From Blasia pusilla (lineage: Eukaryota): 64,000 nt of DNA. The translations under genes and the position numbers were made by a program. The DNA lies in contig CM114271.1 of assembly GCA_050084515.1 (NCBI GenBank), forward strand, positions 17,980,001 to 18,044,000. Direction: 5' to 3'. The first letter of the stretch is position 1. Every line of letters starts with the position of its first letter. The notes below the pieces were generated by a model. The model was not told where the DNA came from. It made no database searches and worked only from the letters and a program-made list of their open reading frames with translations. Positions 34,936 to 60,974 of the stretch are shown piece after piece.

Positions 34936-37719
34936 TGTGGTGCGCATACATATTGCTACACAACATACATCGTTGGTCACATCTACACCACACAACACCG
35001 ATCTTCCCTACACATTGGTAGATCCACACATGTACAGAAATCAACTCATACACATACATGGAGATCACACAACCGCCCCCCTACCTGGCGGTTGGATCCC
35101 CCTTAACTCCAGATAGAAAATATCACATCTCTCTGATATGACCTACTACCCTATACACATCTCGGACATATCCATCATCCCGTGGGAACTACATCAAGAG
35201 GGGGGGTCAAACATGACATATGTCACCGTCAAGAACAACCATCAGATACCAACATGGTGAGTGCACCCCTCGCAGATCCGCACAACATACACCTCAAGTG
35301 TGCAGGTACCACTGCCAAGCTCGGATCCACTATCCCGTCCACGTTCGGAAGATGACATGACGCACAATTGCGCACATGATCCTTCCAAACCATACCATCC
35401 CATCCTTCCAACATGAGGACTAAGGTCGGTAATACCTGGTGCACACGTAGGATCGTGCGCCATGTAGTGACATCTAGCGTCAAGGGTGCCGCCTGCTGTA
35501 AATACACATAATCTTCAAGCTGAAACCTCATAATCTGTGGACGATAACCTCCTCTACAAATGGTCGCGTACTTCAATGTATCTCTATGTTGAGCAATAGC
35601 TAAGTTCTCAAAGGCCATATGCATAACTCTACGAAAAATATCCGTCATCTGCGAACACGCTTGTACCCACACATCTGGATCATCAAGATCTAACACCTCC
35701 GCCATGTCATATCGAATAGCTGTAGGTAAATTTGGCTCTCTCCTAAAGAGCAAAAAATATGGTGAAAATGATGCCAAGGATGCATGCCGACTAAAGCGAT
35801 AACCCATAACCAACCATGGCAACTGTAGGTCCCACTCCCTCAACTGTCCCCGCTGCAAGCCATAGTTGCGCGATCCTCTCTTCAGCGTCTGTACTACTCT
35901 CTCCGCCAACCCATCCGCCTCAAGATGATCTCTGGACGTGGTGCAGTGATCTATCAGCGCTTGATCACATAAGGCCTGAAACTCTCCCCTAAACTCGGAA
36001 CCCTATTCAGTCAACACCTCTTCCGGTACACCAAAGTGACTAAGCACATGATCTAGAAACGCATAAGTTGTTCCCTTGCTTGCCTTGTCCGTTAGTGCCA
36101 CCAACTCTATCCACTTGGACAAATGCTCCACCATGACCAACACATACCTGTGATGACGCCCCGTCAATGGAAAAGGTCCCGCAAAGTCTAAACTCCACCG
36201 ATAACCTAAACCCATAATCGGAAAAGGATGTAACTGCGGAGTGGGAGCATTGAAGGATGCTCGCACTCTATCACATACTATACATCTGGCCACAAACTGT
36301 TGTACCGAGTATGCATGCCGCGCCACCAACATTGAACCTGGAGTAAGTTGAAAGTACGCTTTACTCCAAAATGCCCCAACTCCTCATGGGCATGTTGCAC
36401 TACACATGCTCGTTGGGAAGGATGAGGTACCACTCGTATCCTACCATCTCCTCATACCCGAAAAATATGAGTCCCCTCCCACATGAACCTCTTGGCTCTC
36501 TTTAGGATCCGATCCCGCTCCCTAGCACTCACAGTGCTCGCTATGACGCTAGTGCGTAAGAACTCCACAACCTCTACCTCGTCATGGATATCACGACCAA
36601 CTGTCACCCCCGCACTGACCTCCGGATCCAAAGACTCATCATCCAACCCCATCACTGGAGTCGTCACCTACGATTGACCTACCATAGTCAACCAACAAAG
36701 ATAGGCAGATGCATGCCAACCGGGCACCATCTCCTCATCACTCTCTCCGTGCCATCAAGCTCGTGTGTCGTCTCTCTGACTCGGACATGGATTACGACTC
36801 AACCCATCCGCACACTGGTTCAACCAACTTGGCCTATGAACCACCTTAAACTCATACTCCTATAGTAATAGAGCCCATGTGGCAAGCTTTCCAGTAAGCT
36901 TGTCGGACTCCATCAACCACCTCAACGGCTGATGACTAGTGGTAAGTGTGAAAGGGTTGCCGAATAAATAGCACCTGAAATGTGCCATAGCCCACACTAT
37001 AGCCAAGCACTCTCCCTTGTAAGAGCTTTACTTTTCCTCTACAATGTTGTTCGATCGGCTCGCGTAAGCCACAACAAACTCCCTCTCCTCCTCATCCCTC
37101 TGAGTAAGCACAACACCTAGACCCAACATGCTCCAATCTGTATGTAACTGGAATGGGCAACCCCTAACCGGTCTCTGTAAAATGGGTGAGGACATCAACT
37201 TGTCCTTGAGCTCTTGAAATGCTTGCTCTTGATCATCTTTCCGCAACCAAACCTGATCAAGTCTCGTTAACAAGGTCAAAGACTTTGCGATTGTACTAAA
37301 ACCCTTGACATACAGTCGATAGAAGTTGGCCAGTCCTAAAAATGCTCGGACTCAACTCACATCTGTAGGGCGTGGAATCTACGCAATAGCCTCCACCTTT
37401 GTCTACTGAACGCCTAACCCACTCATGTATATGGTGTGTCCCAAGTACTCAATCTGCTCCTCAAAGAATCTGCACTTTCCTGGATGTAACTTCACTCCAT
37501 GTAACTGCAATCGCCCAAAACACCTCCTCCATGTGTCGCTCATGCTCCTCAAGTGTGGAACTAAAGATAAGAATATCATCTATATAACATCGTACAAAAT
37601 CCAAGCAAGCCAGAGTCCTATCCATCACTCTCTGAAACTCCGCAGGCTTGTTCTTCAACCCAAATGGTAAGAACCGCCATTGATACAAGCGAGGATACAA
37701 GCAATCTCTCCCAAACCGA
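34936..37719 (-). mobile_element. Host element H, 3' half: degenerate RT (part) - RNase H - integrase - PHD, PPT and terminal segment X
   Basis: FGLKNKPAEFQR/YIDD (37461-37719), HTDWS..VVAYASR (37028-37279), WSLDFAGP and AERVVQT integrase (35229-36670). PPT GGGGGGCGGT at ~35072-35083; X 34936-35071. Stops and frameshifts present. Confidence 0.9.
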
Positions 37720-40157
37720 TGTCGTATAGTAAAATCAACCAGTGTGTAAACTCCTTCGTCATTAAGTGTTAGATAGAATTTCATTAGTATTAAGTAAATT
37801 GGCTTAGAAAAAGGAGATTCTTATGTTTAAACCTCTTTATGGTGCCTCTTTTATGCGGGCCCAACTTTAGGAAAAGCAGGTAATAAATAAAAGATGACTT
37901 TATAAAAGTAAAGTAGTTGCTTTAAGGAAAAACAAAAGTAGTCTTAGTTGGTGGCTAGGTTAGTTGGGGTAATTTGGAAAATATCATGTGGATAAAAGAG
38001 GATATTTTGGAAGAGATAAGAGGAAATCTACTTGTGTCAAAATGTGATTGGCTAAGCCTTGAGAGGAAGCCATGTGGCACAAGATAAGATAAGCTCTATT
38101 TCGTACTCTTGTGGATCCCTTGTGAGTATATAAAGAGGAGGGACCTTCAAGGGTTCATCACCTTCTATTCCACATCTTGAGTCTCTTGTGTCTCTCTTGA
38201 GTGTATGGCTTTGGGATTGCTTGCTCTTCCAATGAGAGTGGATCACCCCTCTTGGGAGAGTAACTTGATCATGGTCTATTCTTCGAGAGGTTTCTAGAGT
38301 GTGGTGTGTGTGTGTGGGGGGGATGAGAGGTTTGTCACCGAGAGGAGTTTAGTCATACTAAAATAGCGGATGTTTTGGCTTGTTACTTTCCCAATGAGAG
38401 TGGATTATCCCTCTTGGGAGAATAACTCCGCCAAAACCCATTCTTGAGGAGTGTAGAGAATGTCATCAAGCATGGATAGGGGTGGAGCACGAGTCAGTGT
38501 GCCGACTTTCCTTTCCTCAATCCTTACCATGTCAAGGTACTCTTTGTAGATAGGCACCTTTGGTTCACTCGCTATTTAGTTTATCACTTTGGGGGCGTTC
38601 ATGAACCAGGTCATGCAATCTCCAACTCCGGTGATTCTTCCTATCGTCACATATGGAAGGACATGGGATTGTACTTTGTATGTCCTTATATAGCGATCCA
38701 TGGATGTCAATAGGCCTGGTCAAGTAGGGTTTAACACTAGTTGTGCTATCTTCCTCGTGTACAAACGTAAAATAATTTATAGGGATTTTATAGTTAGGAA
38801 TTTCGGGGTCCGATGTTACGAAGAAGTGATCGCCTCGACACTTCCATTTGTGATACCTATCGTGAGAGAATGGAGAGTGTACATCATAATTTTGTATTGA
38901 AAAAGGAGAACTTATTAGAGAGTTCACCTTGCATCGACCGCATCTACCGCAGCTAGAAGGCCCGCCCTTGCTCGAAGAAAGATTCTCGACACGATAAATG
39001 GTGCTTCCACTGAGAGCTCTTTGAGGCGGTAGTTTGTGTTTGCAAGTTGGAGTCTTATCAAGATGACTACTTTTGGGAGTACTTCATCAATGGGAACTGA
39101 GGGAGCTGAGGATCTTCTCCGAACTTTGACAACATTGTTGAGCCAACAAGGAGGAGTTCACATCGGAGAGCAAAGATTAACAAGGGCTCTCCAAGCGATT
39201 GTGAAGAAGTTGGGGAGATTTGATGGTAGGAACATCACCAAGTATGTTCGAGAGTACGTCTGTGAGATGGAGGTAAATCGTGTACCCGAAGGTGATATGG
39301 TGTCAAGTTTTGAGTTAGCTGTAATACCAGAGATCCGTAGTCAAGTAAAGAAGTTGAGAGCAGAAAATCCAACCTCATGGGAGGAGTACGAGCGATTCTT
39401 TGAAAGGAGAATTCTTCGATGATGATGTGGATCGGGTGACTAAGAGGAGTTTTCTAGAATGGATAGAGCAACGTCCAGGACGTTGCTCTATCCATGACTC
39501 CAAATGAGTTGTTGCGTGAGTTTGAGAAGCGGTTTTTTCAGCTTTCTCCTTCTGAAAGGGCAACTCTAGACTTGAGGAAAACCGAGTTATTCCTTGAGGC
39601 GGCAGATGAGAATTTGGAGGACAAGCTTTTCATAATGTTGGCGGACAAGAATGAAGAAGGAGGTGTCACCACTAATTGGAAGAAAGTGGAAGAAGCTGTT
39701 GCTATCCTCACAAAGCAAAGTCGAAGTAGAGGTAGAACCACAAAGATTCAAGTCGGAGGTACCAATTTCAAATCCATTGCCTAAGCCCATGCCCAAAGCT
39801 TGAAGATTCTACCATTGATGAGTTGGTGAAAGGTTTGAGAGAGTTGAGAGTAGAAATGGCTGAGCTTAAACTTGATAGGAATCCTAGTGTTGGTGCTCCT
39901 TCAACAAGTAAGAACTTTGTGAGAAGATGTATATGGTGTGATAGTGTTGAGCATCAACGTCGAGAATGTGAGGAATTTTCAGAAGCTCTTAGAAATGGAA
40001 TAGTAAACTTCAAAGATGGGAAGATTCATTCGTGCAGATGGTATGCCGTTGAATACCAACTTTGGTAGAGGAGGTATGAAAGGATTAGTGAGAAGTCAAG
40101 TAGGAGTTGCCACTACGACATTAGATTCTGACACCTTTGCAGTAAAAATTGAAGCGC
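37720..40157 (+). mobile_element. Element B: 5' LTR, PBS and gag of a different Ty3/gypsy lineage, inserted into H's RT and truncated
   Basis: LTR 37720-38991 (TGTCG...CGACA, TATATAAA at ~38127). PBS-like TGGTGCTTCCACTGAGAG at ~38999 resembles the complement of a plant tRNA-Thr 3' end (from memory). Frameshifted gag 39062-40150 with GRFDGRNITKY and the knuckle CIWCDSVEHQRREC. Confidence 0.8.
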
Positions 40158-40372: not shown

Positions 40373-41325
40373 TGCTCCAGGATAAAGGCATGATTCCACG
40401 CATGCCTTACGAGGTCTTTGGCACTTCTCTATAGCTCTCGAGTCGTACCCCACAATGGTGAAGAGGTCTTGCCAACATGGGAAGAGACACTCGCCATGGC
40501 ATGTCTCTCCGTGGGACTATCCGCTAATGGGACATCCTCCACATGTGCGTTCCCCTCCAACAACTCTCCTGGCCAGCTAACACTACTTGTGAAAGCTGCC
40601 AACGTGGTCACAGACTTGTCTCGTGATCGACCACCTTGTCCCGTAAATTGCACGGGTGACTGATTCATCCGGCTGTCACCTGACCACCAGCCGATGAGCA
40701 ATGGTCTTCTCCCAGAAGTCAAGGATGAATCCTAGGGGATATAACACTGTACTCCCCACCAACACATTGTACGACTCAGTTGGTGTCGTAATCACATGTG
40801 CGCACCATAGCACTATCCGTTGCATGCCCTGGCTGGACTCTGACAACTATCTCCTGTCGAGTCATATACTGTGTGGGTGATACGCCCACAATCGAGGTCT
40901 GTATGTGGAAGGGACAAGGCTCAATGTCGGCCTTCCGTAACCCCAACGCTAAACACGACGCCTTCCCTAACATCAAGGGTTGTGCTCCCAAATCAAGTAG
41001 GACGCGCTACGGATGGTATACTGTTCTCATCCGACTAACCAAGCGAAATACTCCAACTCGTTTATCCAGTAACACTACTCCAGGTGTCACCACTGCTCGC
41101 TCTATGGCTGGTCGAGTTGGCATATCTACCAACTTTGTCGCCGCCACATGCCATGACTCTGTGGGGGACGTCCCGAGCATCGGCTCTAAGGCCAAGTCCA
41201 CCACCTCCTCAACTACCTCTGAACAAGAAGCAGTTACCTCTCCACGCTCACACAATGTGGTGGCCAGCCGGAACACCTCAGCTGGTCCAACTCCCAACGT
41301 CGCCAACTCTATGGCGGAAAATAGC
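40373..41325 (-). pseudogene. Host element H: aspartic protease and linker region
   Basis: Collinear with 45940-46889 of copy C; VLLD(L)GAQPLMLGK protease motif, interrupted by a stop. Confidence 0.85.
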
Positions 41326-41539
41326 TGTCGTGCGCATACATATCGCTACACAACATACATCGCTGGTCACATCTACACCACACAACACCGATCTTCCCCA
41401 CACACGGGTCGATCCACACATGTACAAAAATAAACTCATACATATACATGGAGATCACTCAACCGCCCCCCTAGCTGGCACTTGGATCCCTCCAACTCCA
41501 GATAGAAAATATCACATCTCTCTGACATGACCTACAACC

Positions 41540-43056
41540 CTATACACATCTCGGACACATCCATCGTCCCGTGGGAACCACATCAAGAGGGGGGGGTCAG
41601 ACATGACATATGCCATCCTCTAGAACAACCATCACATACCAACATGGTGGCTGCACCCCTCGCAGATCCGCACAATATACACCTCAAGCCTGCAGGTACC
41701 ACTGCCAAGCTTGGATCCACCATCCCATCTACGTTCGGAAGATGACATGGCGCACAATTGCGCACATGATCCTTCCAAACCATACCATCTCGTCCCTCCA
41801 ACATGAGGACTCCGGTCGGTAATACCTCGCGCACACGTAGGATCGTGCGCCCTGCAGTGACATCTAGCGTCGTGGGTGCCGCCTGCTGTAAATACACGTA
41901 ATCTCCAGGATGAAACCTCCTAATCCCTGGACGATAACCTCCTCCACAAATGGTCGCGTACCTCAATGTATCTCTATGCTGGGCAATAGCTAAGTTCTCA
42001 AAGGCCATAGGCATAACTCTACGAAAAACTTCTGCCCTCTGAGAACATGCTTGCACCCACACATCTGGATCATCAAGATCTAACACCTCCGCCATGTCAC
42101 GTCGAATCGCTGCAGGTAAATCTGGCTCTCTCCCAAAGAGCAAAAAGTACGGTGAAAATGACGCCAAGGATGCCTGCCGACTAAAGCGATAACCCATAGC
42201 CAACCATGGCAACTGTAGGTCCCACTCCCTCAACTGTCCTCGCTGCAAGCCATACTTGCGCAATCCTCTCTTCACCGTCTGTACCACTCTCTCCGCCAAT
42301 CCATCCGCCTCAGGATGATCCCTGGACGTGGTGCGCTGATCTATTAGCGCCTGATCACACAAGGCCTGAAACTCTCCCATGAACTCGGTACCCTGGTCAG
42401 TCAACACCTCCGCCGGTGCACCAAAGTGACTAAGCACACGATCTAGAAACGCATAAGCTAATCCCTCGCTCGCCTTGTCTGGTAGTGCCACCAACTCTAT
42501 CCACTTGGAGAAATGCTCCACCATGACCAACACGTACCTATGATGACGCCCTGTCAATGGCAAAGGTCCCGCAAAGTCTAAACTCCACCGATAACCTAAA
42601 CCCATAATCGGCAAAGGATGTGACTGCGGAGTGGGAGCATTGAAGGATGCTCGCACTCTGTCACATACCATACATCCGCCACAAACTCTGTACCCTCAAG
42701 TATGCATGCCGCCACCAATATCTGAACTGGAGTAAGCTGTAAGTACGCTTTACTGCGAAATGTCCCAACTCCTCATGGGCATGTCGCACTACACGTGCTC
42801 GCTGGGAAGGATGAGGTACCACTCGTATCCTACCATCTCCCCATACCCGCAAAATGTGAGTCCCCTCCCACATGAACCTCTTGGCTCTCTGTAGGATCCG
42901 ATCTCGCTCCCTAGCACTCACTGTACTCGCAATGACGCCAGTGCGCAAGAAGTCCACAACCTCCACGTCGTCATGGATATCACGACCACCTGTCGCCTCC
43001 TCACTAACCTCCGGATCCAAAGACTCATCATCCAACCCCACCATTGGAGTCATCAC
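41540..43056 (-). CDS. Copy C integrase (HHCC + DDE core) with C-terminal PHD finger; frameshifted
   Basis: AHEELGHF...C..C; DFAGP / TDQG / AERVVQT catalytic triad; CILCGSARGAATMLVCDGCSRGWHMSCLTPP(L)..VPTGRWMCPRC (C4HC3). Confidence 0.9.
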
Positions 43057-43199
43057 CTATGGCTGACCTACCATAGTCAACCAACAAAGATAGGCAGATG
43101 CATGCCAACCGGGCACCATCTCCTCATCACTCTCTCCGTGCCATCGAGCTCCCGTGACGTCTCTCTGACTCGGACATGGGTTATGACTCAACCCATCCG

Positions 43200-44500
43200 C
43201 ATCCTGGTTCAGCCGATCTGGCCTATGAACCACCTCAAACTCATACTCCTATAGTAATAGAGCCCACCTGGCAAGCTTTCCCGTAAGCTTGTCGGACTCC
43301 ATCAACCACTTCAACGGCTGATGATCAGTGATAAGTGTGAAAGGGTTGCCAAATAAATAGCACCTAAAATGTGCCACGGCCCACACTGCAGACCAAGCAC
43401 TCTCCCTCATAGAGTGCCCGCCTCTGCAATGTTGTTCGATCGACTCGCGTAAGCCACAACGAACTCCCTCTCCTCGTCATCCCTCTGAGTAAGCATTGCT
43501 CCTAGACCCAACATGCTCCAATCCGTATGTAACTGGAATGGGCGACCCCTAACCGGTCTCTGTAAAATGGGTGAGGACGTCAACTTTGTCCCTGAGCTCA
43601 TGAAATGCTCGCTCTCGATCATCTCCCCACAACCACACTGATCAAGTTTGTCAACAAGGTCAAAGACTTTGCGATCGCACTAAAACCCTTGACATAAGTC
43701 GAGAAGTTCGCCACCCAAGAAATGCTTGGACTCGACTCACATCTGTAGGGCGTGGAATCTGCGCAATAGCCTCTACCTTCGTCTGCTGAACGCCTAACCC
43801 AATCGGGTATATGGTGTGTCCCAAGTACTCAATCTGCTCCTAAAAGAATCTGCACTTGCCTGGATGTAACTTTAGTCCATGTAACTGCAATCGCCGAAAC
43901 ACCTCCTCCAAGTGTCGCTCATGCTCCTCAACCGTGGAAGTGAAGATAAGAATATCATCTATGTAACATCGTACAAAATCCAAGCCAGCCAAAATCCTAT
44001 CCATCACTCTCTGAAACTCCGGAGGCGCGTTCTTCAACCCAAATGGTAAGAACCGCCACTGATACAAGCAATCTCTCCCGAACCGATCTATCCCCCAGAA
44101 TGTTGTCTTCTCCCTGTCCTCCAACCTGATAGGAAGCTGATGATAGCCAACATGGAGATCTAAAGTACTGAAGATCTTTGCATGCCCTACCGCATCAAAG
44201 ATCTCTCAGAGTAGGCATGGCATACCGATCGACTCTCAAATGCATCGGTTGATAGGACGGTAATCTCCACACATCCGCCTATCCGTCCAATTGCCATACA
44301 TATCCTTCTTCGCGGCATGACTGCGTGGCGGATGCATACTCCCCATGTGACAACTCCACAAGTCCCGCCTCCAACAAGTCATGACTCTGCTCGAATCAAG
44401 GCTCGCTCCATATCAGAATACTGTAGGGTCGACGAAAGATCGGCGTATCACTAGCCAACTCAATCCGTATCCGGGACCCTTCAGCGTACCCAAGTCTCTC
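43200..44500 (-). CDS. Copy C reverse transcriptase and RNase H; many 1-nt indels
   Basis: RMCGDYRPIN, LPFGLKNAPPEFQR, YIDD, KC.FF, HTDWS, VVAYASR, TDHQPL. Confidence 0.9.
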
Positions 44501-44899
44501 ATCATCAAGGCAAAACAACCGACATGCCCTCTACGGAAACCTATGAACTCGCCGTCGCTCTCCTCCTATCAACTTGAGACCTATCACAGGCTCCCAAGTC
44601 TCCATCGTGACCTCACTCGGAGAGGGCGCAACCTCGGCTTTGGTTGCTATGTAGCAACCCTAGCCACCTCATGACCACTCCACTCGACCTCCTACACCAT
44701 GCTCCACATCCGAAAAATGAACATGTGCTACTCTAGCCGCCTTCGCACTCTCTCGCTCGAACGACGCGTCGGGAAGTCCATGGGTGCCTATCTCTCCTCG
44801 TCTCGCCTTTGACCAATGCTCAGACCACCGTCAGAGGCGTGGTCCAACTCGTGGGCGTGACGGCATGGATGACACTCGCATCCGTCTCGCCACCATACC

Positions 44900-45850
44900 T
44901 GGTGACTATCCATGTGAGACAGTTGAGGTCCATCGCTTTGCCCTAACACTGTCTCCGTGATGCCTCGGTCATCCTCGGCACCGCCGTGGTACCGTAGTGA
45001 ACCCCATGGCGCTCGCGCTCATCTCGCTGTAGGCTCCTCCAATACTCCGCTCACCTCATCCCAAATCATGCCTGGTCCTCCTCGACAAAAGGCATGGGAT
45101 CTTTGGAAGCTCACCAACGAGGTAAGGCTGCCCTCAACTCCCCCACCCTATTGGCCGTGACCAACGGTGGTCTATCATCGCGTGTCACCACCTGAGATCG
45201 ACGCCCTCAGTCCAAAATAGCATCCACCGTGAGATGCGATGCTCTCTAGACTCCACTGTAGGCTCGACTCAGTACCTCTGATGGTATCAGGTTTGTCCAC
45301 CACAGTCGTAGACGATGGGCACGTGACCCAACTCTCGCTGCATCTAACAACACAGCCGGTCCCAACCAGGACCTCACCTGATGTACACTCGTCATCACAC
45401 GTGCACGAGTATCTCCCAACAACAACACGTTCTCCAAAATGTACGCAGGAGAACATATCTGACTCTGCTGCAAGTGTCGTACTACTCGCAGCATCTCCCA
45501 AAACATCCCTGACCTCGGATCTTGCAATCCAAATCCTCGGCCAGATGATGAATGACCCTGACATGGCCATCGAGCAATCACCAAATGAATGGTGCCAACT
45601 CTATCCAGATCCTGCGCCCCCACCAAAGATATGTCGACGGGTAGCGTATCTTTGGTATCCCGTCATCGAGATATCGACAACAACTCAGGATACCTCTTGA
45701 CCAATCTCGCCACGTGACGTAATGATACTCGCCGCGCGGTCTCATCTCTCTCCACATAAAGGTATTGATGCACCCGTATGCCCGCCTGCAATACTGCAGC
45801 CAATCCGGTGCTAATCCCTCCAAAGAGATCTAACACCCTAACACCCTCCT
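44900..45850 (-). CDS. Copy C DNMT3-like C5 cytosine methyltransferase domain between protease and RT; frameshifted
   Basis: Motif I VRVLDLFGGISTGL, II YLYVE, IV LVIARWPCQG, VI YILENV, VIII DAARVGSRAHRLRLWWTNL, X LGQ(A)MDLN, in canonical I-X order. Confidence 0.9.
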
Positions 45851-46289
45851 CTGGGCACTGCCACACAACATGTGTGGTATCTAGTGGGGTCATCGTCTCC
45901 ACTCCAAGAGCCCGATCGCCACGTGACTCTCTGCTGCCTGGGATAAAAACATGACTCCACGCTTGCCTCACGAGGTCGTCGGCACTCCTCTCTGTAGCTC
46001 TCAGTCGTGCCCCATAATGGTGAAGAGGCATCGCTAACATGGGAAGAGACACCCGCCATGGCCTGTCTCTCCGTGGGACTATCCGCTCTTTGGGACATCC
46101 TCCGCATGTGCGTTCCCCTCCAACAACTCTCTGGCCGCCTAACACTACCGTGAAAGCCGCCAACGTGGTCAGACTCGCCTCGTGATCGACCATCTCGCCC
46201 CCAAATCGCACGGGTAATCGACTCATCCGACCGTCACCTGACCGCCATCCTGGCCGATAAGCAACGGTCTCCTCCCAGAAGTCAGGATG

Positions 46290-48750
46290 AATCTAGGGGA
46301 TATAACACTGTACTCCCCACCAACACATCGTACGACTCAGCTGGTGTCGTAATCGCACGTGTGGCGCACCATAGCACTATCCGTCGCATGCTCTGGCTGG
46401 ACTCTGACAACAATCTCCTGTCGAGTCATATACTGAGTGGGTGATACGCCCCCAATCGAGGTCTGTATCTGGAAGGGACAAGGCTCAATGTCGGCCTTCC
46501 GTAACCCCAACGCTAAACACGCCGCCTTCCCTAACATCAAGGGTTGCGCTCCCGAATCAAGTAGGACGCGCTGCGGGTGGTATACTGTCCCCGTCGGACT
46601 AACCAAGCGAAATACTCCAGCTCGGTTATCCAGTAACACTACTCCAGGTGTCACCACTGCTCGCTCTATGGCCGGTCGAGCTGGCATATCTACCAACTTC
46701 GCCGCCGCCGCATGCCATGACTCTGTGGGGAACGTCCCAAGCACCGGCTCTGAGGGCAAGTCCACCACCTCCTCAACTACCTCTGAACAAGAAGCAGTCA
46801 TCTCTCCACGCTCACACAACGTGGCGGCCAACCGGAACACCTCAGCTGGTCCAACCCCCAACGTCGCCAACTCTAAGGCGGAAAATAGCGGAGTCTGACT
46901 CACTCTAGTGGCCACCTCCAACATCAGAGTCGACACCGACTCACTCGAGCCGGTATAGGAGTTGTCACTCCAACTCTCATGACGCCGGCGTAGGTGCTCG
47001 ATATGTAGGCACCGCTGGTCGTCGAGGCACCATCGATGGTGTGTGTAGTGCCTCCGACAATGTGAACGACTGTGGAACCCTGGCCTGCCGCCCATCGGTC
47101 CCCTCTGGTGGGTCAATCTCAACTCCACCTCTTGATGGCTCGGTGCCTCTCGCAGCACCCCGAGTCACCACTGCAGCTGCCTCAACGTGGGCTGCACTAC
47201 ACATGAATCCCATATTGAGAGATCTCACCCAGTCGGGTAAGAGGTAGAGGCCGAGTCACACTGTGGCCGCTCGCGACTCCGTGCCTTCCTAAGCCGCATC
47301 ATCGTCATGGCGGCAATCCTCGCTCCAACCGATTGATGCGTGAGAGAAGTGCCGGCTCTGGTGCTCCTGCTCCATCTCCTCTGGCTGGTGGTGGTCCTCT
47401 ACCACCACGTCCAGGAAGAACTCCCCGACCTCCTCCAGGACGACCGCCCCCAGGCCCTCGGCCTACCTCTGGACGTGCCCCTCGGCGAAGGTCAAAACAT
47501 CTATCCCTAGTATGACCATATCTGTGGCAATGGTCACACTGTGTCCGTGGGTGGGGCCATCCTCTGGGCTCTGCGCAATCGAGGCGCTGGTGGTCCTCTC
47601 CCATGCTGTGGGCAGTCTCTCTGCCTATGGGCCTCTCCACACGTCCAACAAGACCCCATCGGTCCCTGTTGGGCAACATATGTAGGTGCAGGTCGTTGCC
47701 TCATAGGCTCACGGTACCCGCCCTGCTCTCTAGGCACACTGGCCCGCTCCCGTGGTACTGGTGCTCGCTGTGGCACCGGTGGGGTCACCGCCGCTCGTGG
47801 ACCCGTCGACTCTCGAGAAAATCCAGCGGTCACTACCTGCTCCTCACTCATGTTGATCTCAATATGCTCAGACAACTCAAAGACCACCTTCAATGTGGGC
47901 TTCTTTGTGTGAATCTGCACCGCATCTTGGACTCTCCTCCGTAGTTCTCGGTCCAGAACCCCATACCAATACTGGACTGACTGCGCCTTAGTCACTCCAA
48001 ACGTCGCAATGATCAGCCTCCTCATGCGTGTGAATGCCTCTCTCAGACTCTCACCCGATCGTCGCTGAAAATCCTGTAGACTCTTCAGCTTGTCGGTGCG
48101 TGCAGACGCCTGGTAGCTCTTTCCCAAGCGCCGGAAGAACTCCACTGTGGAGCTTAAGCTGGGTGGACCTCTACCACCAGAGGTCTCTGCCACATCGCAT
48201 GTGTCACTGTCCTCCTCTCCATCTAGTCTCCGGGCTGATGGTGTGGGTCTCTCTCCTCTCACAATCCCATCATATGCCTCGCGACCACTAGTGGACACAT
48301 ACCCTGGAGCCCAATACATCCTCCAGGCATCGATCTCTACTGAATATAGTGATCGAAACTCCATGTAGTCATCCATCGGAGGACCCTCCAAATCTTTGGA
48401 ACAACCCCTTCCATGCCATGAAAGGGTTGAACCGTGTCGGGGTCCGTATCTCCTGGAAGTCGCACCATGTGTCAAACTCCTGGATGAAATCATCTAAGTC
48501 GATGGTGCCCACTGCACCCGAGAAACGACGCATGCCCCGATGGCCCATGTCGTCCATCTCCTGCCAAGTACTACTGTCTCTTTCGGTGATCTCATCACCA
48601 GACCGAGTGTCCAATGATGACGATCCAGTCACAGATGGCTGTCGAGGTAGCTCCTCACTGGTAACCCCTCGATATCTCACTCCACTCCGTGTTACACCAC
48701 TACTACTGCTCGCACTACCCCGTTCTTCCGAACCCTGGAAGAACGCCGTG
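46290..48750 (-). CDS. Copy C gag (two CCHC knuckles) and aspartic protease; frameshifted
   Basis: RRFSGAVGTIDLDDFIQEF capsid N-terminus; CWTCGEAHRQRDC and CDHCHRYGHTRDRC; RGG-rich linker; VLLDSGAQP protease. Confidence 0.85.
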
Positions 48751-50065
48751 ATGACAAACCTTGTCTCACCCGCTCAAGCACTCAGACTCACCGAGAGTCT
48801 CCCACACGCCTCACTAGCTCACCTATGCGAACATCAATCCCGTGATGACATACCCGACCTCACGCACGCTCAACACTCGGGCTCACGATGAGCCTCCCAA
48901 CTGACTCACCTAACCTAGCGACACACTCTCGGGTCATACACGTGACCCCTACTCGGCAACCGCCGTATATCCACCAACATGCTACACATGAAAAGAATCT
49001 ACACTCGTCACCATCACTGCACCCATCTAGCACCAGCTACTACCCGATACCCAGCACTCTCAATCACACACGACAAGTGCGGGAAAAGGGACTCGAATGG
49101 GTAACCTGATCACGCCCTCCAACCTGCTGCACCGTCAATATGCACTCCTCCACATGATATGAAAATCTCCGCCACATAACACTCCCCTCGACCAACACGT
49201 CGATCCTCCCGTCAATAGATGCGGACAATCCGTCGGCATCATGCACACTGCCCCTCCAGCGTAAACTCTCGCAACGCCCTATGCGCGCCTCAAAAACAAC
49301 ATGTCACGCCCGCTGCCCAACTTGTCGATCACTCAGCACGTCGACATCCTCCCTGCCCTCACGTTGCCCATGCGCACCGCGTTCGCCGGACCGACCTCGT
49401 CCGTCCTACCACGTTAAATTCGATCGTCCGACCGCCGTCGGTGCTACCACGTTGGAAAGAGGGGAAGAACTTGGGCCGCGGCCCTATCGGCCCCTTGGGC
49501 CCTAAATGCGCTGGGGCACTGCCACTGCCCGCTGTCCGCCCGCCCCCGCCACGCGCCCTGCCGTCCGCCGTCCGCGCCCTGCCCTAAATTTCACGACCTA
49601 ACTCTAGCCGCTTTTTGATGACCCCGGCGTTGCAAGACCCAACTTGCCCGTTCCTTCTCTTTCGACGCCTTCACTTGCGTACACCCGATGCCCTACCACA
49701 CGCTACACTCATTCTTTGTCTCCCAACAATCTGCACGACAAAATCTGAGAAAACGGACAGCGCTTCCGCCCACGGCCTTCCGAACAGAAAAATGACACAA
49801 ATTGACACACACACGTCTCCAGGGGCTCCCCAACCGAGGCAACTCGCTTGCCTACCTGCAAACAACGAATTCCCACCAGCCCCCTGACATCTTTCTCATG
49901 TAAAAATAAAGAGTAGTAAAAACGACACACCCGGCCTAAAACTCCACTCCTCAATCTACATCGGCATATCGAGCCTCGTCCACCTTGTGCTATCAAGGAA
50001 TCCGGACGCTGCTGGGTCCCTAGTCCTAGCTCACACACATACAAGGGAGGTGCTCCAACGGCCCA

Positions 50066-50110
50066 ACATGAGAAAGATGGCTTAAGAAAGCCATCTTCCT
50101 CTCTTATATA
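50066..50110 (-). promoter_or_regulatory. Copy C TATA box and predicted TSS/self-primer
   Basis: TATATAA at 50110-50104 (minus). 31 nt downstream begins CATCTTTCTCATGT (50079-50066), the exact complement of 49901-49888. Confidence 0.6.
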
Positions 50111-50383
50111 GGTTGGGAAGAGCCAAAAGGCTCTTCTCCTAAAAATATCCCTTCCCTTGGTAACCTGTGTGCACAGGTTACCAAGGGCAGGTGACCTGGT
50201 CAACAAGTCACCTGGCTGTAAAAGATCTCAATATGAAAGTCGTCAGAAATGACGTTCCTGACACAATGGACCTATCCTCAACCTCATCCGACATTGTGGG
50301 ACAAAGTTACATTCAAGATAGTCCGCTGGCTCCTACGCCCTATCCACGATAGATCTCGGCCTATCGGCTACTCAGATGTGACA

Positions 50384-51972
50384 TAGCCGAGTCTGGCTCA
50401 CTCTAGTGGCCACCTCCAACACTATGGTCCACACTGACTCCACTCGAGCCAACAAAGGAGTTGTCACTCCAACTCCTCGTGACATCAACTTACGTGCCTG
50501 ACTTGTAGGCACCGGTGGTCATTGAGGCACCATCGACGGTGTGTGTAGTGCCTCTGACAATGTGCATGACTGTGGAACCCTGGCGTACCGCCCATCGGTC
50601 CCCTCATGTGGATCAATCTCAACTCCATCTCTTGATGGCTCGGTGCCTCTCACAGCACCCCGAGTCACCACTGCAGCCACCTTAACCTGAGCTGTACTAC
50701 ACATAAACCCTATACTAGCGAGATCCTCACTCGGGTCAGGATAAGAGATAGAAGCTGAAGCCACACTAGCTGCTCGCGGCTCCGTGCCTTCCTTGAGCTG
50801 CATCGTCGTCATGGCAGCAATCCTCTACTCCAATTGATCGATGCGTGCGAGAAGTGTCGGCTCTAGTGCTCATGCTCCATCTCCTCTGGCTGGTGGTGGT
50901 CCTCTACCACCACGTCCAGGAAGAACTCCCTGACCTCCTCCAGGACAATCGTCCCCAAACCCTCGGCTTAGCTGTGGACGTGCCTCTTGACGAAGGTCAA
51001 AAAATCTATCCCTAGTGGACCATATCTATGGCAATAGTCACACTAGTACTGTGGTGGGGCCATCCTCTGTGGCTCTTTAGTAATCGGAGCCGCTCGTGGT
51101 CCTCTCCCATTTTGTGTGCAGTCTCTCTGCCTATGGGCCCCTCCACACGTCCAACAAGATAACATCGGTCCCTGTTGGGCAACATATGTAGGTATGGGTT
51201 GTTGCCTCATAGGCTCACGGTACCCACCCTGCTCTCTAGGCACACTCGCCTTCCCGCGGTACTGGTGCTCGTTGTGGCACCTGTGGGATCACTGTGGCTC
51301 GTGGACCTATCGACTCTCGAGAAAATCTAGCGGCCACTACCTGCTCCTCACTCATGTTGAGCTCAGACAACTCAAAGACCACCTTCAATGTGGGCTTCTT
51401 TGTGTGAATCTGCACCGCATCTTAGACTCTCCTCCGTAGTTCTTGGTCCAGAACCCCGTACCAATACTGGATTGACTGCGCCTCAGTCACTCCATACGTA
51501 GCAATGATAAGCCTCGTCATGGGTGCGAATGCCTCTCTCAAACTCTCACCCAATCATCGTTGAAAATCCTGTAGACTCTTCAGCTTGTCGGTGCATACGC
51601 CTTGGTAGCTCTTCCCCAACTTTCAAAAGAACTCCACTATGGGACTAAAGCTGGGTGGCCCTCTACCACCAGAGGTCTCTGCCACATCACTTGTCTTACT
51701 GCTCTCCTCTCCATCTAGTCTGCAGGCTCATGGTGTGGGTCTCTCTCCTCTCAAGATCCTATGGTATGCCTCGTGACTACTAGTGGACACATACCCTGGA
51801 GCCCAATACATCCTCCAAGCATTGATCTCTACTGAATATAGTGATCGAAACTCCATGTAATCGTCCATCAGAGGACCCTCCAAGTGTTGGAACAACCCCT
51901 TCCACGCCATGAAAGGGTTGAACCGTGTCGGGGTGCGTATCTCTTGGAAGTCGTACCACGTGTCGAACTCCT
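50384..51972 (-). pseudogene. Host element H gag, central and 3' part
   Basis: Collinear with 46886-48481 of copy C; knuckle CWTCGGAHRQRDC; in-frame stops. Confidence 0.85.
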
Positions 51973-52918
51973 TGTTGTGCACATATACATCGTTACACAA
52001 CATACATCGCTGTCACCGAACACACACACAAACACGCATGATCCCATGCTAACTCATGGCATCCAAACAACGAGACAAGAAGTACTAACATATCTCCAAT
52101 AAAGTAAGATCCAATCTCTCTCTACACCATCTCACACCATAGCTCTCAAAGGTGTGCACTCTCCCTCATGTCAAACCAAACCCACTCTCCTAATGAAAGG
52201 CTTGGGTTACACTCACAAGGCAAGGGACCATAGCTCCGCCGTCTCATGCCAAAAGGTTCAACAAAGAGAGAATGAGCTCTCAAGCTCTCTCTCCTTGAGG
52301 TATGCCCTCCCCTCTCCCAAGCCCTCTCCATGGTGACCTATTCTCCCAAGTCACCTCCTTGGCTCTTGACTTGATGTAGGAGGTCAAGGGCCACTTACCA
52401 AAAATAGAAAGTCGATCGTATATTCAAGATGGTACTTACCTAAAATAGTAAGTTCCTCAATATGGCTCCAAATGAGCCGAAACGAAGGGGAAACCTGCTC
52501 TCTCAGGTTTCCCGGGGCCTCAGCAAGTCATCCTCGACCTACTAAGCGTGTCCTCCACTACTCACAAAAGCGCTCTACTAGATCTCACTGATTTATCCTA
52601 AAAGACGTGATAGTTGTCGTGCGCATACACATCGCTACACAACATACATCGTTGTCATCGAACACACGCACGATCCCATGGTAACTCATGGCATCCAAAC
52701 AACGAGACAAGAAGTACTAAAATATCTCCAATCGCCCCCCTAGCTGGTGGTTAGGGCTCTCTAACTCCTCATAGCCATCTATCCCTACCTAACATAACAT
52801 ACATCTCTCGGACGCTAAGAGCAAGAAGGTCGGGTGCTCATGTGGCTCCATCGTTAGTCGCCTTCCTGTCATCCATATCACAGAAAAAATTGGAATCAAA
52901 ACCTACCTAGTATCTCCT

Positions 52919-55700
52919 CTATGTACATCTTGGATACATCCATCGTCCCCGAGGAACCCTAATGAGAGGTGGCATAAGACATGCCATATGCCAACCTCTC
53001 GAACATCCATCACAGACTAGCATCGTGGCCGCACCACGGGCAGAACCACACAACATACAACGCAAGCTTGTAGGAACTACTACTAAGCTCAAATCTACTT
53101 TACCATCAATGTTAGGAAGGTGACATGGCGCACAATTATGCACATGGTCCTTCCATACCATACCATCGCGTCCCTCCAAGAAGAGAACACCGGATGGCTA
53201 AACGTCACGCACTCTCAGGATAGTGCGCCCTGCAGTCACATCCAACATCATCGGTGCCGTCTGCTGCAAGTAGACATAATCTCCCTGATGAAACCTCCGG
53301 ATAGTTGGTCGATAACCACTACCCCGAATAGTCGCATACCTCAACGTATCTTGATGCTGCGTAATCGCCAAGTTCTCGAACGCCATGGGCATCACTCTCC
53401 GAAATAACTCAGCCCTCCGAGAACATGCTCGCATCCATACATCTAGGTTATCAAGGTCCAGCACCTCACCAGCATCTCGACGAATGGCCGCAGATAAATC
53501 TGGCTCTCGGCCATAAAGTAGCAAGTACGGTGAAAAAGACGCTAAGGATGCCTGCCTACTGAATCTGTATCCCATCGCCAAGCAGGGAAACTGGAGGTCC
53601 CAATCTCCTAGGTGACCTCTCTGCAAGCCATACTTGCGTAAACCCCTCTTCATCGTCTGCACAACTCTCTCCGCTAATCCATCCGCCTCAGGATGATCTC
53701 GCGAAGTCGTGCGATGGTCAATCAGCGCTAGATCACACAAGGCCTGGAACTCACCACAAAACTTGGTACCCTGGTCTATCAACACCTCAGCCGATGTGCC
53801 ATAATGACTCAACACTCTGTCAAGGAAGGCATAAGCTACTCTCTCACTCGCTTTGTCAAGCAATGCAACCAACTCACCACGAAACTTGGTACCCTGGTCT
53901 ATCAACACCTCAGCCGATGTGCCATAATGACTCAACACTCTATGAAGGAAGGCATAAGCTACTCTCTCACTCGCTTTGTCAAGCAATGCAACCAACTCAC
54001 CACGAAACTTGGTACCCTGGTCTATCAACACCTCAGCCGATGTGCCATAATGACTCAACACTCTGTCAAGGAAGGCATAAGCTACTCCCTCACTCGCTTT
54101 GTGAGGCGATGCAACCAACTCGATCCACTTCGAGAAGTGCTCATAACGACTGTGACGCTCCGTCAAAGGCAAAGGTCATGCAAAATCCAAACTCCATCTA
54201 TACCCTAAGCCCTTGATCGGTTATGGATGCAACTATGGAGTCGGACTCCTCATCCTCGCACCAACTTCTCATCACTCTCTCCATGCCATCGAGCTCCAAT
54301 TGCATCTCGCTGACTCGGACATGGATTACAACTCAACCCATCTGCATCCTCGTTGAGCATCCCAGGTCTATGTACCACCTGAAAATCATACTCCTGCAAC
54401 AACATAGCCTATCTCGCAAGCTTCCCTGTATGCTTGTCGGACTCCATCAACCACTTCAGTGGTTGATGATCAGTGATGATGGTAAAGGGATTGCCGAATA
54501 AGTAACACCTAAAATGCGCGACAGCCCACACCGCAGCCAAGCACTCACCCTCATATGAGCTATACTTTGTCTCTGCAGCATTGTTTGAGCGGCTAGCGTA
54601 AGCCACCACAAACTCTCTACCCTTATCATCATGCTCGGTGAGCACTGCTCCAAGCCCCACCATGCTCCAATCTGTGTGCAAGTGGAAAGGACGCCCCTTG
54701 ATTTTGGTCTCCTCAAAATGGGCGCGAATGTCAACTTGTCCTTGAGGAAGTAAAATGATCGCTCCTGCTCATTCCCCCAGTGCCACTCATAATCCACCTT
54801 GGTCAGCAAGATCAACGGCTTCGCAATCGAAGTGAATCCCTTGACGTACCACCGATAGAAGTTTGCCAATCCCATGACTGCGCGAACACGGCTCACATCT
54901 GTAGGACGTGGAATGTGTGAGATAGCCTCTACCTTTGTCTGTTGAACACCAAGGCCCCCTGGGTATACTGTATGACCCAAGTACTCAATCTCGTCGTAGA
55001 AGAACTTGCACTTGCCTAGATGTAGCTTCAGCCCATGTAATTGCAATCGTCGAAATACCTCCTCTAGATGTCGCTCATGCTCCTCAACTGTGGTGCTAAA
55101 GACTACGATGTCATCCATATAACAACTAAAAAATCCAGACCAGCCAAGATCATATCCATGACCCTCTGAAACTCAACCGAGCCGTTCTTTAACCCAAATG
55201 GTAAGAACCGTCATTGGTACAAATAATCCTTCCCGTGAGGATCGATGCCCCAAAATGCCGTCTTCTACCTCTCCTCTAATCTGATAGGCAGCTGATGGTA
55301 TCCGGCTCGCAAATACAATGAACTAAAAACCTTTGCATGACCAATCGCATCAATGATCTCCTCAGGGGTGGGCATGGCATACCTATCGGACTTTGTTTGC
55401 CGATTGATAGGTCGGTAATCCCCACACATCCGTCTATCCGTCCAGTTGCCATGCACATCCTTCTTGGCGGGCATGATAGTGGCAGATGCATACTTCCCAT
55501 GCGACATCTCCACTAGTCCTGCTCCAACCAAGTCTTGGATCCTACTCTGAATCAGAGCCCTCTCCATATCACTGTACCTGCAGGGTTGTCAAAAGATCGG
55601 CGTATCACTCGACAACTCAATGCGGATCCCCGGCCCCTTCAGCGTACCCAAATCCTCCATGCTAAATGCACAACAACTCCTATAACTCTTGAGGAACTGA
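52919..55700 (-). pseudogene. Copy D RT - RNase H - integrase - PHD; HHCC region deleted, 123-bp triplication in the core
   Basis: RMCGDYRPIN, YMDD, TDWS, TDHQPL, AERVVQT, CMLCGSARGAATMLVCDGCSRGWHMACL. RNase H joins directly to TPxLHP at ~54245. Confidence 0.85.
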
Positions 55701-56104
55701 CGTATTCGACGCCGCTCTCCTCTTGTCAACTTAGGGCCCATATCTGGCTCCCAAGTCTCCATTGTGACTACAGTAGGACTGTTTGGCGCGGATATCAGTG
55801 GTTGCTATGGTGCAACCCCGTCTCGAACAACAACACTCGACCGCTCTCCTGCAGCCAACTGCAAACTCTGATCTCCTCCACATGCACTGCCCGGAACCAC
55901 GCTTGATGTTGTGGCTATCATCTCCTCGCGTACCTGCAAAACATCCCAAGAAGTCCAAGGGTATCTCTCTCGATCTCCCTTGGTGTGTCGATCTCCTCGG
56001 GTCTCGCCCCCAGCCACTGCCTCCATCGTCTCGGTAGGCATGGGGCTCACCAACGCAACCGCTGTGATCTGTCCTCATCTCATCCGACGCTGCTGAGCCA
56101 GTCC

Positions 56105-57085
56105 CAAGCTGAAGATCCATGTCAAGGAGTTTAGGTCCATCGCCTGACCTAAGACATGGCGTGGTGATGCCTCTCACATTGACGATACTGCCGTCACTCC
56201 TATGGAAAATCCCATCGCCTGCTCTCTCTCGTCGGGGTTGGGCTCCACCAACCTCTGAACGTGGTCATCCCAAACCAAGCTAGGACCGGCCTCCTTGTAT
56301 GCATAGGAAGCGAGAAAACTCACAAACGTGGGAAAGGCTGCCCGCAGCTTGCCTACCCTGTTGATCACACTCAACGGTGGTCGATCATCGTGCCTCACTT
56401 CCTGTGAGCAACAACCTAGATCCAGAATGGAATCCACTAACAAATGGAGGGGCGCTCCACTCTTGCATACACCCTCCGTAACATAACATCGGGCACCAAG
56501 TTGGTCCACCATAGACACGGGCGATGGGCTTTAGAACCTACACTTTCCGCATCCAAGAACACTGCTGGGCCAATCCAGGCACGCACCTGATGAGCACTCG
56601 TCACCACCCGTGACCTGGAGTCTCCTAAGATCGGCACATTCTCCAGAATGTAGGCTGGAGAACGAGACTAGTGCTCCTGCAACTGTTGTAAGATTATCTC
56701 TTTGTAAAGTAAGATCCTCAAAATCTCCCAAAACAACGTGGACCAAGTGTCAGCCAACCCGCTGCCTCGTCCAACACTCGATTGGCCTTGACATGGCCTA
56801 CCGGCAATGACCAAATCAATGGTGCCTAATCGGTCTAAGTCCTGCGCCCCTAGCAACGAAATATCCCTCGGTAGGGAATTCTGGTACCCCTGTACCGCCC
56901 ACGCAGACAATAAGTCGGGAAAACGTAGGCGTAACTATGCCACATATCGTAGTGAGACGCACCTTGCAACATCATCACTCTCCACATACAGGTACTGTTG
57001 CACTCGCACTTCTGCGTGCAAAATAGCAGCTAACTCGGTGCTAATCCCTCCAAAGAGATCTAACACTCGAATACCCTCCTCCGGG
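56105..57085 (-). CDS. Copy D DNMT3-like C5 cytosine methyltransferase domain; degenerate
   Basis: IRVLDLFGGISTEL, YLYVE, IDLVIAGRPCQG, LENVPILGD, DAESVGSKAHRPCLWWTNL, EPNPDEREQAMGF, RHVLGQAMDLNSLTWIF. Confidence 0.9.
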
Positions 57086-57499
57086 GTACACCACACAATG
57101 GGTGTGGTATCCAAGGGTGTCATCATAGTAGTCCTTGCTACCTCAGGTTCCACAGACCCCTCATGCTCCGGTGCAAACGCCTCGCTCCACGCGGTTAGCA
57201 CGTGCTCATTTGCCAATCGTCGAAGCTCCTCAGTCGAGCCCCACAGCGGCACATGTCCTCCACGGAATGATGCGACTACCATAACATTCCTCCCCATAGA
57301 AATTTTAGGAATGGGAGTATCCTCTGCATGGACATGTCCCTCGATCAAATCACTAGGCCAAGTGATGGGACTGCTAAATGCTGCTAAGGTCGCCATCTCT
57401 TATGGCCGTTGCTCGATCACTGCACATGAGAATCGAACGGGTAATGAGCTAAGGTGCCCATCACCTGACTGCCATCCTGGTATATAGGACGCTGACTCT

Positions 57500-59828: not shown

Positions 59829-60974
59829 AATGTAGGACCACTCACAATGTGTGGTGATGTGCTCACAAACTCCTCTACATGCTCCCCCTTGTTTGAAGAC
59901 AACACAGAAGGAGATCGAGGTGATCTCTCACGTGGAGACCCACAAAAACTCGCACCACTCTAGATAAACCCTCCAGACCTACTCTCAGGTCCACTACCTT
60001 GCCACTCAAAATCCTGAAAGGACGCCGTGGTGGCCCTCGTGCCCCTCTCACACGATTACTCTCAACCTCGCGAGTAATCCCTCAATCACTCATCCCAAAC
60101 ATGCGGCACTCGATCTACACTCTCCCTCCACGAGACGTGTAACGTGCGGCAACAAGTGGCGTGGTGCGGAAAATCGACTAGACTATCATCTCATCGACAA
60201 CCTACCCTCAACTCCGGACATCCCACACAGGTCTATGTCCCCTAAACCACATACATAAATGATGCTCTCAACATCCACACACCCAATATCCCCAAATAAA
60301 CTACCCAAATCCCATAATCCCTCACACGTGCAGGGTAAGGGAGCAGAATGGGTAACCTGAACACATGTCGATGTCGCTCCTCAGCAACTGCAAATCTCGA
60401 CCCCAACTCGGTCGTGGAGACAAATCCTCCAATCAGCAAGTCATACTCCTCCCGTATTGACGCAGCTTAAAACTCCTTGATGGACAGTGCGGTTCCAGCG
60501 GAACAGTGCGGCGTTGCATGCGGCACAGAACAACTACAAACGGCACGGCCCTCGATGGTGGGATGTGGCACTCGACGGCATATCCTCCTCAATCAACAAT
60601 AAACCCACACTCTGCTCCACAATGATGGTGCGGCTCCACGATCAAGACGATGCGGTGCGGCCACGAGTGGCACGGCAATCGGCGGCGTGTTGCGGCTACG
60701 GGCATCACAGCACGGTACTCGATCATCATCCAGTGGCTACCAACCACAACATAGCACCATGAAATCAAAACTCAAACACCATAACCGAAGGTCATCTACC
60801 ATTAGTGGTTGATGACAAAACTGCGATGATGGTGGCGGCCAAACCAATGTACGTGGTGGCGGCGCAAGTCAAAGAATCAACGGTGGTCGTGGAAGACCCT
60901 CTACTTCGTAATGGCGGCAATGGTAGCCAAAGGGTGGAAAACGGCCAAATGCAGCTCTGAGCAATGGTGGGCAA

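Follow-up and report, generated by a model that had tools for sequence, protein, structure and literature searches.

Retrotransposons of the Ty3/Gypsy type that carry a DNA methyltransferase (DNMT) of the DNMT3 type have already been published for streptophytes as Gypsy-DNMT3 elements (PMC5890265; cited in PMC12344493 and bioRxiv 10.64898/2026.05.21.726589). The main text of de Mendoza et al. 2018 (Nat Commun 9:1341; PMC5890265) describes KnitGypsy-Dnmt3 of Klebsormidium nitens, in which the DNMT lies within the open reading frame of the Pol polyprotein, and places the DNMTs of the K. nitens elements in a divergent clade of Dnmt3. It also attributes to the Klebsormidium Gypsy element the A-coding-B-A-B repeat arrangement described for DIRS-type elements, and proposes for DNMT-bearing elements a methylation of the new complementary DNA (cDNA). 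Here we analyzed a stretch of 64,000 nucleotides (nt) assigned to Blasia pusilla (contig CM114271.1, positions 17,980,001 to 18,044,000; hereafter the window) and found on its minus strand a nest of at least four decayed copies of the Gypsy-DNMT3 kind, all of them now non-functional.

The best overall explanation, which we consider very probable, is that the methyltransferase domain found in the window is that of a Ty3/Gypsy element of the Gypsy-DNMT3 kind, selected formerly and present now in dead copies. The coding order is gag, protease (PR), a predicted DNMT3-type cytosine-5 (C5) methyltransferase, reverse transcriptase (RT), RNase H and a DDE integrase (INT) bearing a PHD finger, and the coding region is flanked by split direct repeats arranged A-coding-B-A-B. 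The Ty3/Gypsy pol set was present on the minus strand in the order PR-RT-RNase H-DDE integrase, the protease being detected by tblastn and the remainder by Pfam. In the copy that we call C, the integrase matched Integrase_H2C2 (E 2.3e-8) and rve (E 1.4e-14), with the PHD finger at its C-terminus (41583-41690, minus strand; E 8e-6).

The window elements belong to the published kind, as they share its gag-PR-DNMT order, a homologous DNMT and the same repeats. Like KnitGypsy-Dnmt3, they are of the Gypsy type and combine a non-permuted, intronless domain of predicted DNMT3 type with A-coding-B-A-B repeats (main text of PMC5890265), and the K. nitens protein has its DNMT after a CCHC knuckle and a protease, as do the window elements. 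Purifying selection is likewise common to both, with a Ka/Ks below 0.2 given there (PMC5890265, main text) and a ratio of 0.16 obtained here. Unlike KnitGypsy-Dnmt3, they fall in a separate DNMT clade together with liverwort and moss proteins (~60-78% identity to one another and ~37% to the K. nitens protein); their host is apparently a land plant, the window copies are dead, and their integrase has a PHD finger, a term absent from the main text of PMC5890265.

Compared with DNMT3A, 3B and 3C of host genomes, which were the top matches in sequence and in fold, the element domain has the canonical motifs, and its motif VIII and motif IX-X regions align with theirs. It differs from them in its low identity (20-23% in the fold alignment), in a longer segment between motifs VIII and IX, in its location inside a retrotransposon polyprotein, and in the lack of a PWWP or ADD domain, neither of which Pfam detected in any of 11 polyproteins. 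SymbioDIRS-Dnmt3 of Symbiodinium and DIRS-like elements also have a DNMT3-type domain in pol and A-coding-B-A-B repeats (PMC5890265, main text), but they rely on a tyrosine recombinase. The window elements instead encode a DDE integrase that includes an H2C2 zinc domain, end in TG...CA and are flanked by a duplicated target of 4 bp. An assignment to the DIRS-like retrotransposons was therefore ruled out by the rve and Integrase_H2C2 matches, the repeat arrangement alone being DIRS-like.

In chromoviruses, which are Gypsy elements, the integrase ends in a chromodomain that acts in insertion targeting; these elements are not known to carry a methyltransferase. The window elements resemble them in having a chromatin-reader module at the same end of the integrase, the reader being a PHD finger and not a chromodomain. 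The module recurs in the relatives P0142, P0158 and P0298 (E 1.7e-9, 1.2e-7 and 1.4e-7, respectively). By analogy with the chromodomains of chromoviruses, such a histone reader on the integrase suggests that insertion may be targeted.

Copies C and D both carry the methyltransferase domain between protease and RT, as the initial annotation had claimed, and the intervals that it gave (44900-45850 and 56105-57085) lie inside the true spans. Its call of a C5 methyltransferase was borne out by Pfam, since a stop-free piece of copy C (45246-45662, minus strand) matched PF00145 (E 4.7e-8; score 33.3 bits, cut-off 22 bits). Of the eight stop-free copy C pieces searched, three gave no Pfam match, namely the gag piece, the protease piece and, by itself, the 209-aa piece bearing motifs I-II. 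Using tblastn, residues 1-361 of P0008, an intact relative of 368 aa, aligned with copy C at 45974-44901 (59% identity, E 1.5e-124), and residues 5-368 aligned with copy D at 57192-56087 in two frames (59-60% identity, E 6e-115), matches well beyond what chance would give. The motifs follow one another in canonical order: FGGISTG, PCQ, ENV, R.R.WW.N, ERE.AMGF and LGQAMD, which we take to be motifs I, IV, VI, VIII, IX and X. In copy D, a single frame spans residues 83-1080 of the Marchantia relative P0007 (gag, PR and DNMT through motif VIII; tblastn), and the C-terminal part of the DNMT is in the same frame as the start of RT. Hence, the domain is colinear with its neighbours.

The catalytic domain is intact in neither copy. 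In copy C it contains seven stops in a single-frame alignment, counting an out-of-frame stretch at ~45020-45112, and an Arg precedes the catalytic Pro-Cys where relatives have a Gly. The copy D domain has three in-frame stops, a frameshift at 56449 and a 7-residue insertion, and its R.R motif has lost the second Arg to a Cys. Both are pseudogenes. This broken state, which was absent from the initial annotation, bears on the condition of the copies and not on the membership of the family.

The domain is, according to sequence matches and a modeled fold, a predicted DNMT3-type, non-permuted C5 methyltransferase. A phmmer search of the PDB with 341 aa of P0007 returned DNMT3A, 3B or 3C in its first 29 rows (E 2.5e-11 to 1.1e-6), followed by a DRM-type chain (5.7e-5), M.HaeIII (1.9e-4) and DNMT2 (3.2e-4). 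HMMER aligned the motif IX-X region of P0007 with DNMT3A and left query residues 226-292 unaligned. AlphaFold, supplied with 14 relatives, modeled P0008 at a mean predicted local distance difference test score (pLDDT) of 88.3, and all 34 matches listed by Foldseek against the PDB were DNMT3A, B or C; the best of them had an E-value of 1e-19 and a target template modeling score (TM-score) of 0.83. The likeness to DNMT3 that had been read from the window was thus supported by way of intact relatives. A DRM was ruled out because the motif order is canonical, running unpermuted from I to X in the domain, in the P0007 alignments and in the P0008 fold, as initially described; DRM chains matched the N-terminal part of the query only (E 5.7e-5 or worse). 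The catalytic C, Q, E, N, R, R and W of motifs IV, VI and VIII were invariant in 14 diverse relatives, and this conservation, together with the fold, suggests that the intact enzyme would methylate cytosine in DNA.

Ratios of nonsynonymous to synonymous substitution (dN/dS) were calculated between copies C and D by the Nei-Gojobori method, with the stops and the out-of-frame stretch left out. The DNMT gave 0.16 (270 codons; dN 0.31, dS 1.9), and not a value near 1, next to 0.16 for RT-RNase H, 0.22 for PR and 0.08 for the integrase core, all of which are rough values because dS between the two copies is saturated. The DNMT is as constrained as RT, and purifying selection acted between the C and D lineages; therefore, the domain was formerly a working part of the element. 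For the closer copies B and C, dN/dS was 0.4-0.8, as expected for decay following insertion.

A word-indexed search with a window piece retrieved 42 proteins that were 49-81% identical over the aligned parts, and the named sources among them were Marchantia polymorpha (many), Calypogeia fissa, Riccia sorocarpa, Sphagnum troendelagicum and S. fallax. The Marchantia protein Mp_4g09160 (P0007, 1278 aa; its cluster has 18 member sequences) contains gag, PR and a DNMT with all motifs. In the annotated Marchantia proteins P0004, P0018 and P0030, the frame continues from the DNMT into RT, and P0149 is one continuous frame from zinc knuckle to integrase. When P0008 was searched exhaustively, 4268 representative proteins matched at E ≤ 1e-3, of which the best 150 were listed. 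At E ≤ 1e-30 there were 269, many of them inside proteins of 1000-3456 aa, and at least three copies lie in the window itself, which agrees with the original description of the domain as a family trait and not a one-off capture.

The kinship with the Klebsormidium element, also proposed beforehand, was supported by the K. nitens protein KFL_013780020 (P0208), which matched profile A1 with an E-value of 5.7e-101 and 37% identity. P0208 has a CCHC knuckle at 297, an aspartyl protease at 598-691 and its DNMT from 833 (833-971), an order identical to that of the window elements. Further relatives were found in Mesostigma viride and Haematococcus lacustris by profile search and in a Scenedesmus species by cluster look-up. 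Of the named proteins, those of bryophytes stand closest in sequence, and several of them have long open frames; the more distant relatives are green-algal. The host, which the initial annotation had credited with land-plant-type genes, accordingly looks like a streptophyte, its element's closest named relatives being liverwort and moss proteins. In 27 of 32 relatives that have both PR and DNMT, no more than 160 residues follow the DNMT before the frame ends, so the DNMT seems to be part of a first frame with Gag and protease. One relative, P0060 (455 aa, 49% identical to P0008), is labeled by NCBI as a DNA cytosine methyltransferase from a 'Candidatus Obscuribacterales' metagenome bin; it is encoded on a 2.4-kb contig and falls inside a 59-member type-A clade of the tree described below, and the contig may be misbinned eukaryotic sequence.

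The domain occupies two different positions in pol. We probed with PR, RT, INT and PHD fragments those 210 of the 329 collected proteins that cover at least 270 of 345 profile columns. Type A, in which the DNMT precedes RT as in the window, comprised 36 of these proteins. Type B, with the DNMT between RNase H and integrase, comprised 97, of which 53 contained RT, DNMT, INT and PHD finger, and the other 77 showed a DNMT alone. Both orders were confirmed on single proteins by Pfam; examples of type B are P0142, P0146, P0158, P0298 and P0187 (Scenedesmus). The second position reflects either a shift of the domain inside pol or a second capture. No paper naming a bryophyte Gypsy-DNMT3 was found by full-text literature searches, which leaves the supplements of PMC5890265 and PMC12344493 as places where one may be named, and the second architecture and the PHD-integrase were named in no text found, while supplements may list them. 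What goes beyond the texts found are the bryophyte relatives and the green-algal relatives with the order RT-RNase H-DNMT-INT-PHD.

An unrooted FastTree phylogeny was built from 212 domains and 345 columns without an outgroup. Both window copies grouped with one other protein (support 0.90), and this group is nested in a clade of 21 members (support 1.0) to which every named bryophyte sequence of the tree belongs (seven Marchantia, two Calypogeia and one Sphagnum). This clade lies within one of 59 members (0.985), which includes type A proteins and no type B protein. All 97 type B proteins were in one 124-member clade (0.84), and the K. nitens protein fell in a separate type-A clade of 24 members (0.92).

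Several observations weigh against the reading of the domain as a formerly selected DNMT3-type enzyme of a Gypsy-DNMT3 lineage. As both window copies are pseudogenes, any function rests on relatives, and none of 80 metagenome loci had an open frame longer than 508 aa. A 138-aa piece of the window matched M.HhaI and M.HaeIII alone in the PDB (E ~0.005) and no DNMT3; it was dropped as a test of family because it spans motifs IV-VIII only, and the intact relatives were used instead. RNA depth was 0-7 in the DNMT bins versus 8-30 in most RT-integrase bins. The only published test of a Gypsy-type domain, that of Klebsormidium in yeast, detected no methylation and is called inconclusive by its authors (main text of PMC5890265). 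To these are added the saturated dS behind the selection estimate, the construction of the tree without a host DNMT3 reference, and the placement of the bryophyte and Klebsormidium clades, which are not sisters, the type-B clade lying between them under midpoint rooting.

The last of these points would suit an independent capture, in which bryophyte-type elements took a host DNMT3 separately from the Klebsormidium elements and the shared position of the domain is convergent. The 59-member clade of the window and bryophyte domains is distinct from the 24-member clade of K. nitens, and recurrent capture in other lineages has been argued by de Mendoza et al. 2018 (PMC5890265, main text). The topology does not decide the matter, the tree having no outgroup. 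Both groups place the DNMT after the protease and both have A-coding-B-A-B repeats, and they match each other with a profile E-value of 5.7e-101, versus 2.5e-11 for mammalian DNMT3A. We therefore regard separate capture as unlikely.

Another possibility is that the domain was kept for something other than DNA methylation, either as a non-catalytic module that binds DNA or chromatin, as DNMT3L does for DNMT3A, or as an enzyme acting on RNA. The negative yeast result for the Klebsormidium domain would agree with this (PMC5890265, main text), and purifying selection indicates usefulness, not chemistry. However, a non-catalytic module is not expected to retain catalytic and cofactor motifs, and 14 relatives at 33-45% identity show little or no variation in Pro-Cys, Glu-Asn-Val, Arg-x-Arg and the cofactor motif; the fold resembles DNMT3A/B/C and not DNMT2. 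Such a role is improbable. A one-off chimera, in which a single retrotransposon copy happens to contain a pseudogene of a host DNMT3 or a faulty join of the assembly, has nothing but the broken state of the copies in its favor. It is refuted by the order of domains, which copies C and D share with the older fragment, and by the continuous frames of P0004, P0018, P0030 and P0149.

If the domain is the enzyme of a Gypsy-DNMT3 element, as we favor, it would be made jointly with Gag from the first reading frame, released by the protease, and carried along with the particle or the pre-integration complex. It might then methylate cytosines of the element's own new DNA, so that a new copy would enter the genome already carrying a host-like mark, while the PHD finger of the integrase would target chromatin. 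The suggestion of the initial annotation that the domain may be processed from pol and packaged cannot apply to this window, its copies being dead through stops and frameshifts, and methylation of the cDNA or circle, which was overstated there, is an inference.

The coordinates of the element copies and of their parts are collected in Table 1. The final 30 kb of the window, where the retrotransposon nest lies, have a G+C content of 0.49-0.58, which exceeds that of most of the remaining window.

Table 1 Parts of the Gypsy-DNMT3 element nest in the window.
Feature	Position in the window	Strand	Basis or remark
Copy C, whole insertion, A-coding-B form	41326..50383	-	9058 nt; nested in copy B protease region
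Copy C gag	47594..48557	-	tblastn, P0007 residues 1-320
Copy C protease region	46294..46945	-	tblastn, P0007 residues 496-726
Copy C predicted DNMT3-type C5-methyltransferase domain, pseudogene	44898..45941 (approximate)	-	PF00145; tblastn with P0008; profile alignment 45827-44898
Copy C RT and RNase H, broken, 4 stops	43138..44605	-	RVT_1 E 4.9e-25; RT_RNaseH_2 E 4.1e-14
Copy C integrase (H2C2 zinc domain, DDE core) and C-terminal PHD finger	41583..43056	-	Pfam
Copy D, A-coding-B-A-B	51973..61833	-	Nested in copy B gag; repeat pairs, terminus motif, junctions
Copy D repeat B2	51973..52100		
Copy D repeat A2	52102..52612		
Copy D repeat B1	52615..52732		
Copy D repeat A1, remnant	61703..61833		
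Copy D predicted DNMT3-type C5-methyltransferase domain, pseudogene	56075..57192	-	tblastn with P0008
Copy B 3' part (RT, RNase H, integrase, to B-repeat terminus)	34936..37720	-	90% identical to 41326-44087
Copy B protease and PR-DNMT linker	40380..41325	-	90% identical to 45941-46889; stops where DNMT would start
Copy B gag, P0007 residues ~28-513	50383..51972	-	87% identical to 46885-48481; tblastn
Older, more diverged fragment of the same kind	31299..31980	-	DNMT motif VIII region 31822-31980; RT 31299-31544

Within 34936-62551 the nest is built of its own kind, the younger copies C and D lying inside the protease and gag of the older copy B with 4-bp duplications. Copy C splits the copy B protease exactly, with TAGC duplicated on either side and insert ends of TG...CA; no direct or inverted repeat of at least 25 nt was found within the insert, which has no terminal repeats. 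Copy D splits the copy B gag and is flanked by TCCT on one side and by TCTT on the displaced other side, the join near its end at 61833 being rearranged. In copy B, unrelated sequence at 37721-40379 stands in place of the DNMT and the N-terminus of RT, and tblastn with the relatives gave no DNMT match there. The same segment contains a plus-strand open reading frame with a CCHC-like knuckle (39736-40068; no Pfam match), and at 40158-40371 a displaced start of the A repeat is fused to an N-terminal piece of gag. The integrase core of copy D harbors a 123-nt unit repeated three times in tandem (53726-54121, minus strand; 90-96% alike), which amounts to an in-frame repeat of 41 residues.

The older fragment retains the order PR, DNMT, RT, with a PR-like piece at 34426-34794 upstream of the two regions given in Table 1. 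Its DNMT piece corresponds to P0008 residues 200-245 (48% identity, E 6.5e-7) and its RT piece to P0004 residues 749-830 (46% identity, E 2e-13; both by tblastn).

Direct repeats of 307-344 nt, ~8.5-8.8 kb apart, were found in 4 of 19 long metagenome loci. In loci L073, L040 and L056, the downstream A copy is directly bordered on both sides by a shorter repeat, B (112-119 nt, 88-93% identity). As these B repeats flank the downstream A, the order in the three loci is A-coding-B-A-B, and the interpretation of the 307-344-nt repeats as long terminal repeats (LTRs) was rejected once it was revealed. Copy D has the same order, its repeat pairs being 51972-52100 versus 52614-52732 (85%) and 52102-52252 versus 61703-61851 (93%). 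The motif of the B terminus occurs three times in the window (34936, 41326 and 52615), and three matches were seen in none of 100 shuffles. Copies B and C stop at this terminus without the second A-B repeats, and a loss of A2-B2 through B-B recombination, akin to the formation of solo LTRs, would explain their form.

Three RNA runs labeled with the source organism gave 845, 941 and 977 reads on copy C. Only 6, 17 and 18 of these, respectively, were at least 99% alike to it; most were 90-95% alike, so the RNA reads derive from sibling copies. At position 45572, the window letter is contradicted by nearly all RNA reads and by the greater part of the DNA contig depth, which give the family-typical residue before Pro-Cys; this observation concerns sibling copies only. 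The first mates were chiefly on the plus strand of copy C, which in most stranded libraries corresponds to RNA of the minus strand, the sense strand here. Several hundred reads exit copy C at 41321-41326 into a consensus that matches the B1-to-A2 junction of copy D; hence, A-coding-B-A-B is the common, transcribed form.

The ratio of observed to expected CpG in the copies was 0.67-0.83, and 166 of the 240 substitutions between copies B and C were transitions, 50 of which changed CpG to TpG or CpA. This pattern fits the ordinary decay of methylated repeats and is no proof of it.

Two open frames lie on the minus strand outside the elements. The first (6978-8675, 565 aa), presumably a host gene, lies in the G+C-rich region at 6-10 kb; Pfam detected a KH domain in it (E 2e-7), and its resemblance to the DUF7903 proteins of streptophytes stayed below threshold (score 0.79). 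The second (28756-29643, 295 aa) is rich in His-Glu and His-Asp repeats and had no Pfam match.

The window copies themselves are ordinary dead repeats; they are of value in pointing to Marchantia relatives with open frames and to how broad the lineage is. The open-frame relatives of Marchantia polymorpha suggest that the role of transposon-borne cytosine methyltransferases, for which the Klebsormidium domain has been the only Gypsy-type test, could be studied in a land plant with good genetics and available methylome data. The wider spread of the elements (Scenedesmus, Haematococcus and Mesostigma) and the two positions of the DNMT bear on the frequency as well as the manner in which retrotransposons acquire chromatin enzymes. 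We put forward only tentatively, as a possibility still rather doubtful, that Gypsy-DNMT3 elements are an old lineage spread across green plants, with open-frame and transcribed land-plant copies, a first-frame DNMT and a PHD reader, and that they may add to de novo methylation in some bryophytes. If this were true, a single element would hold both the writer of a chromatin mark, the DNMT, and a reader, the PHD finger on its integrase.

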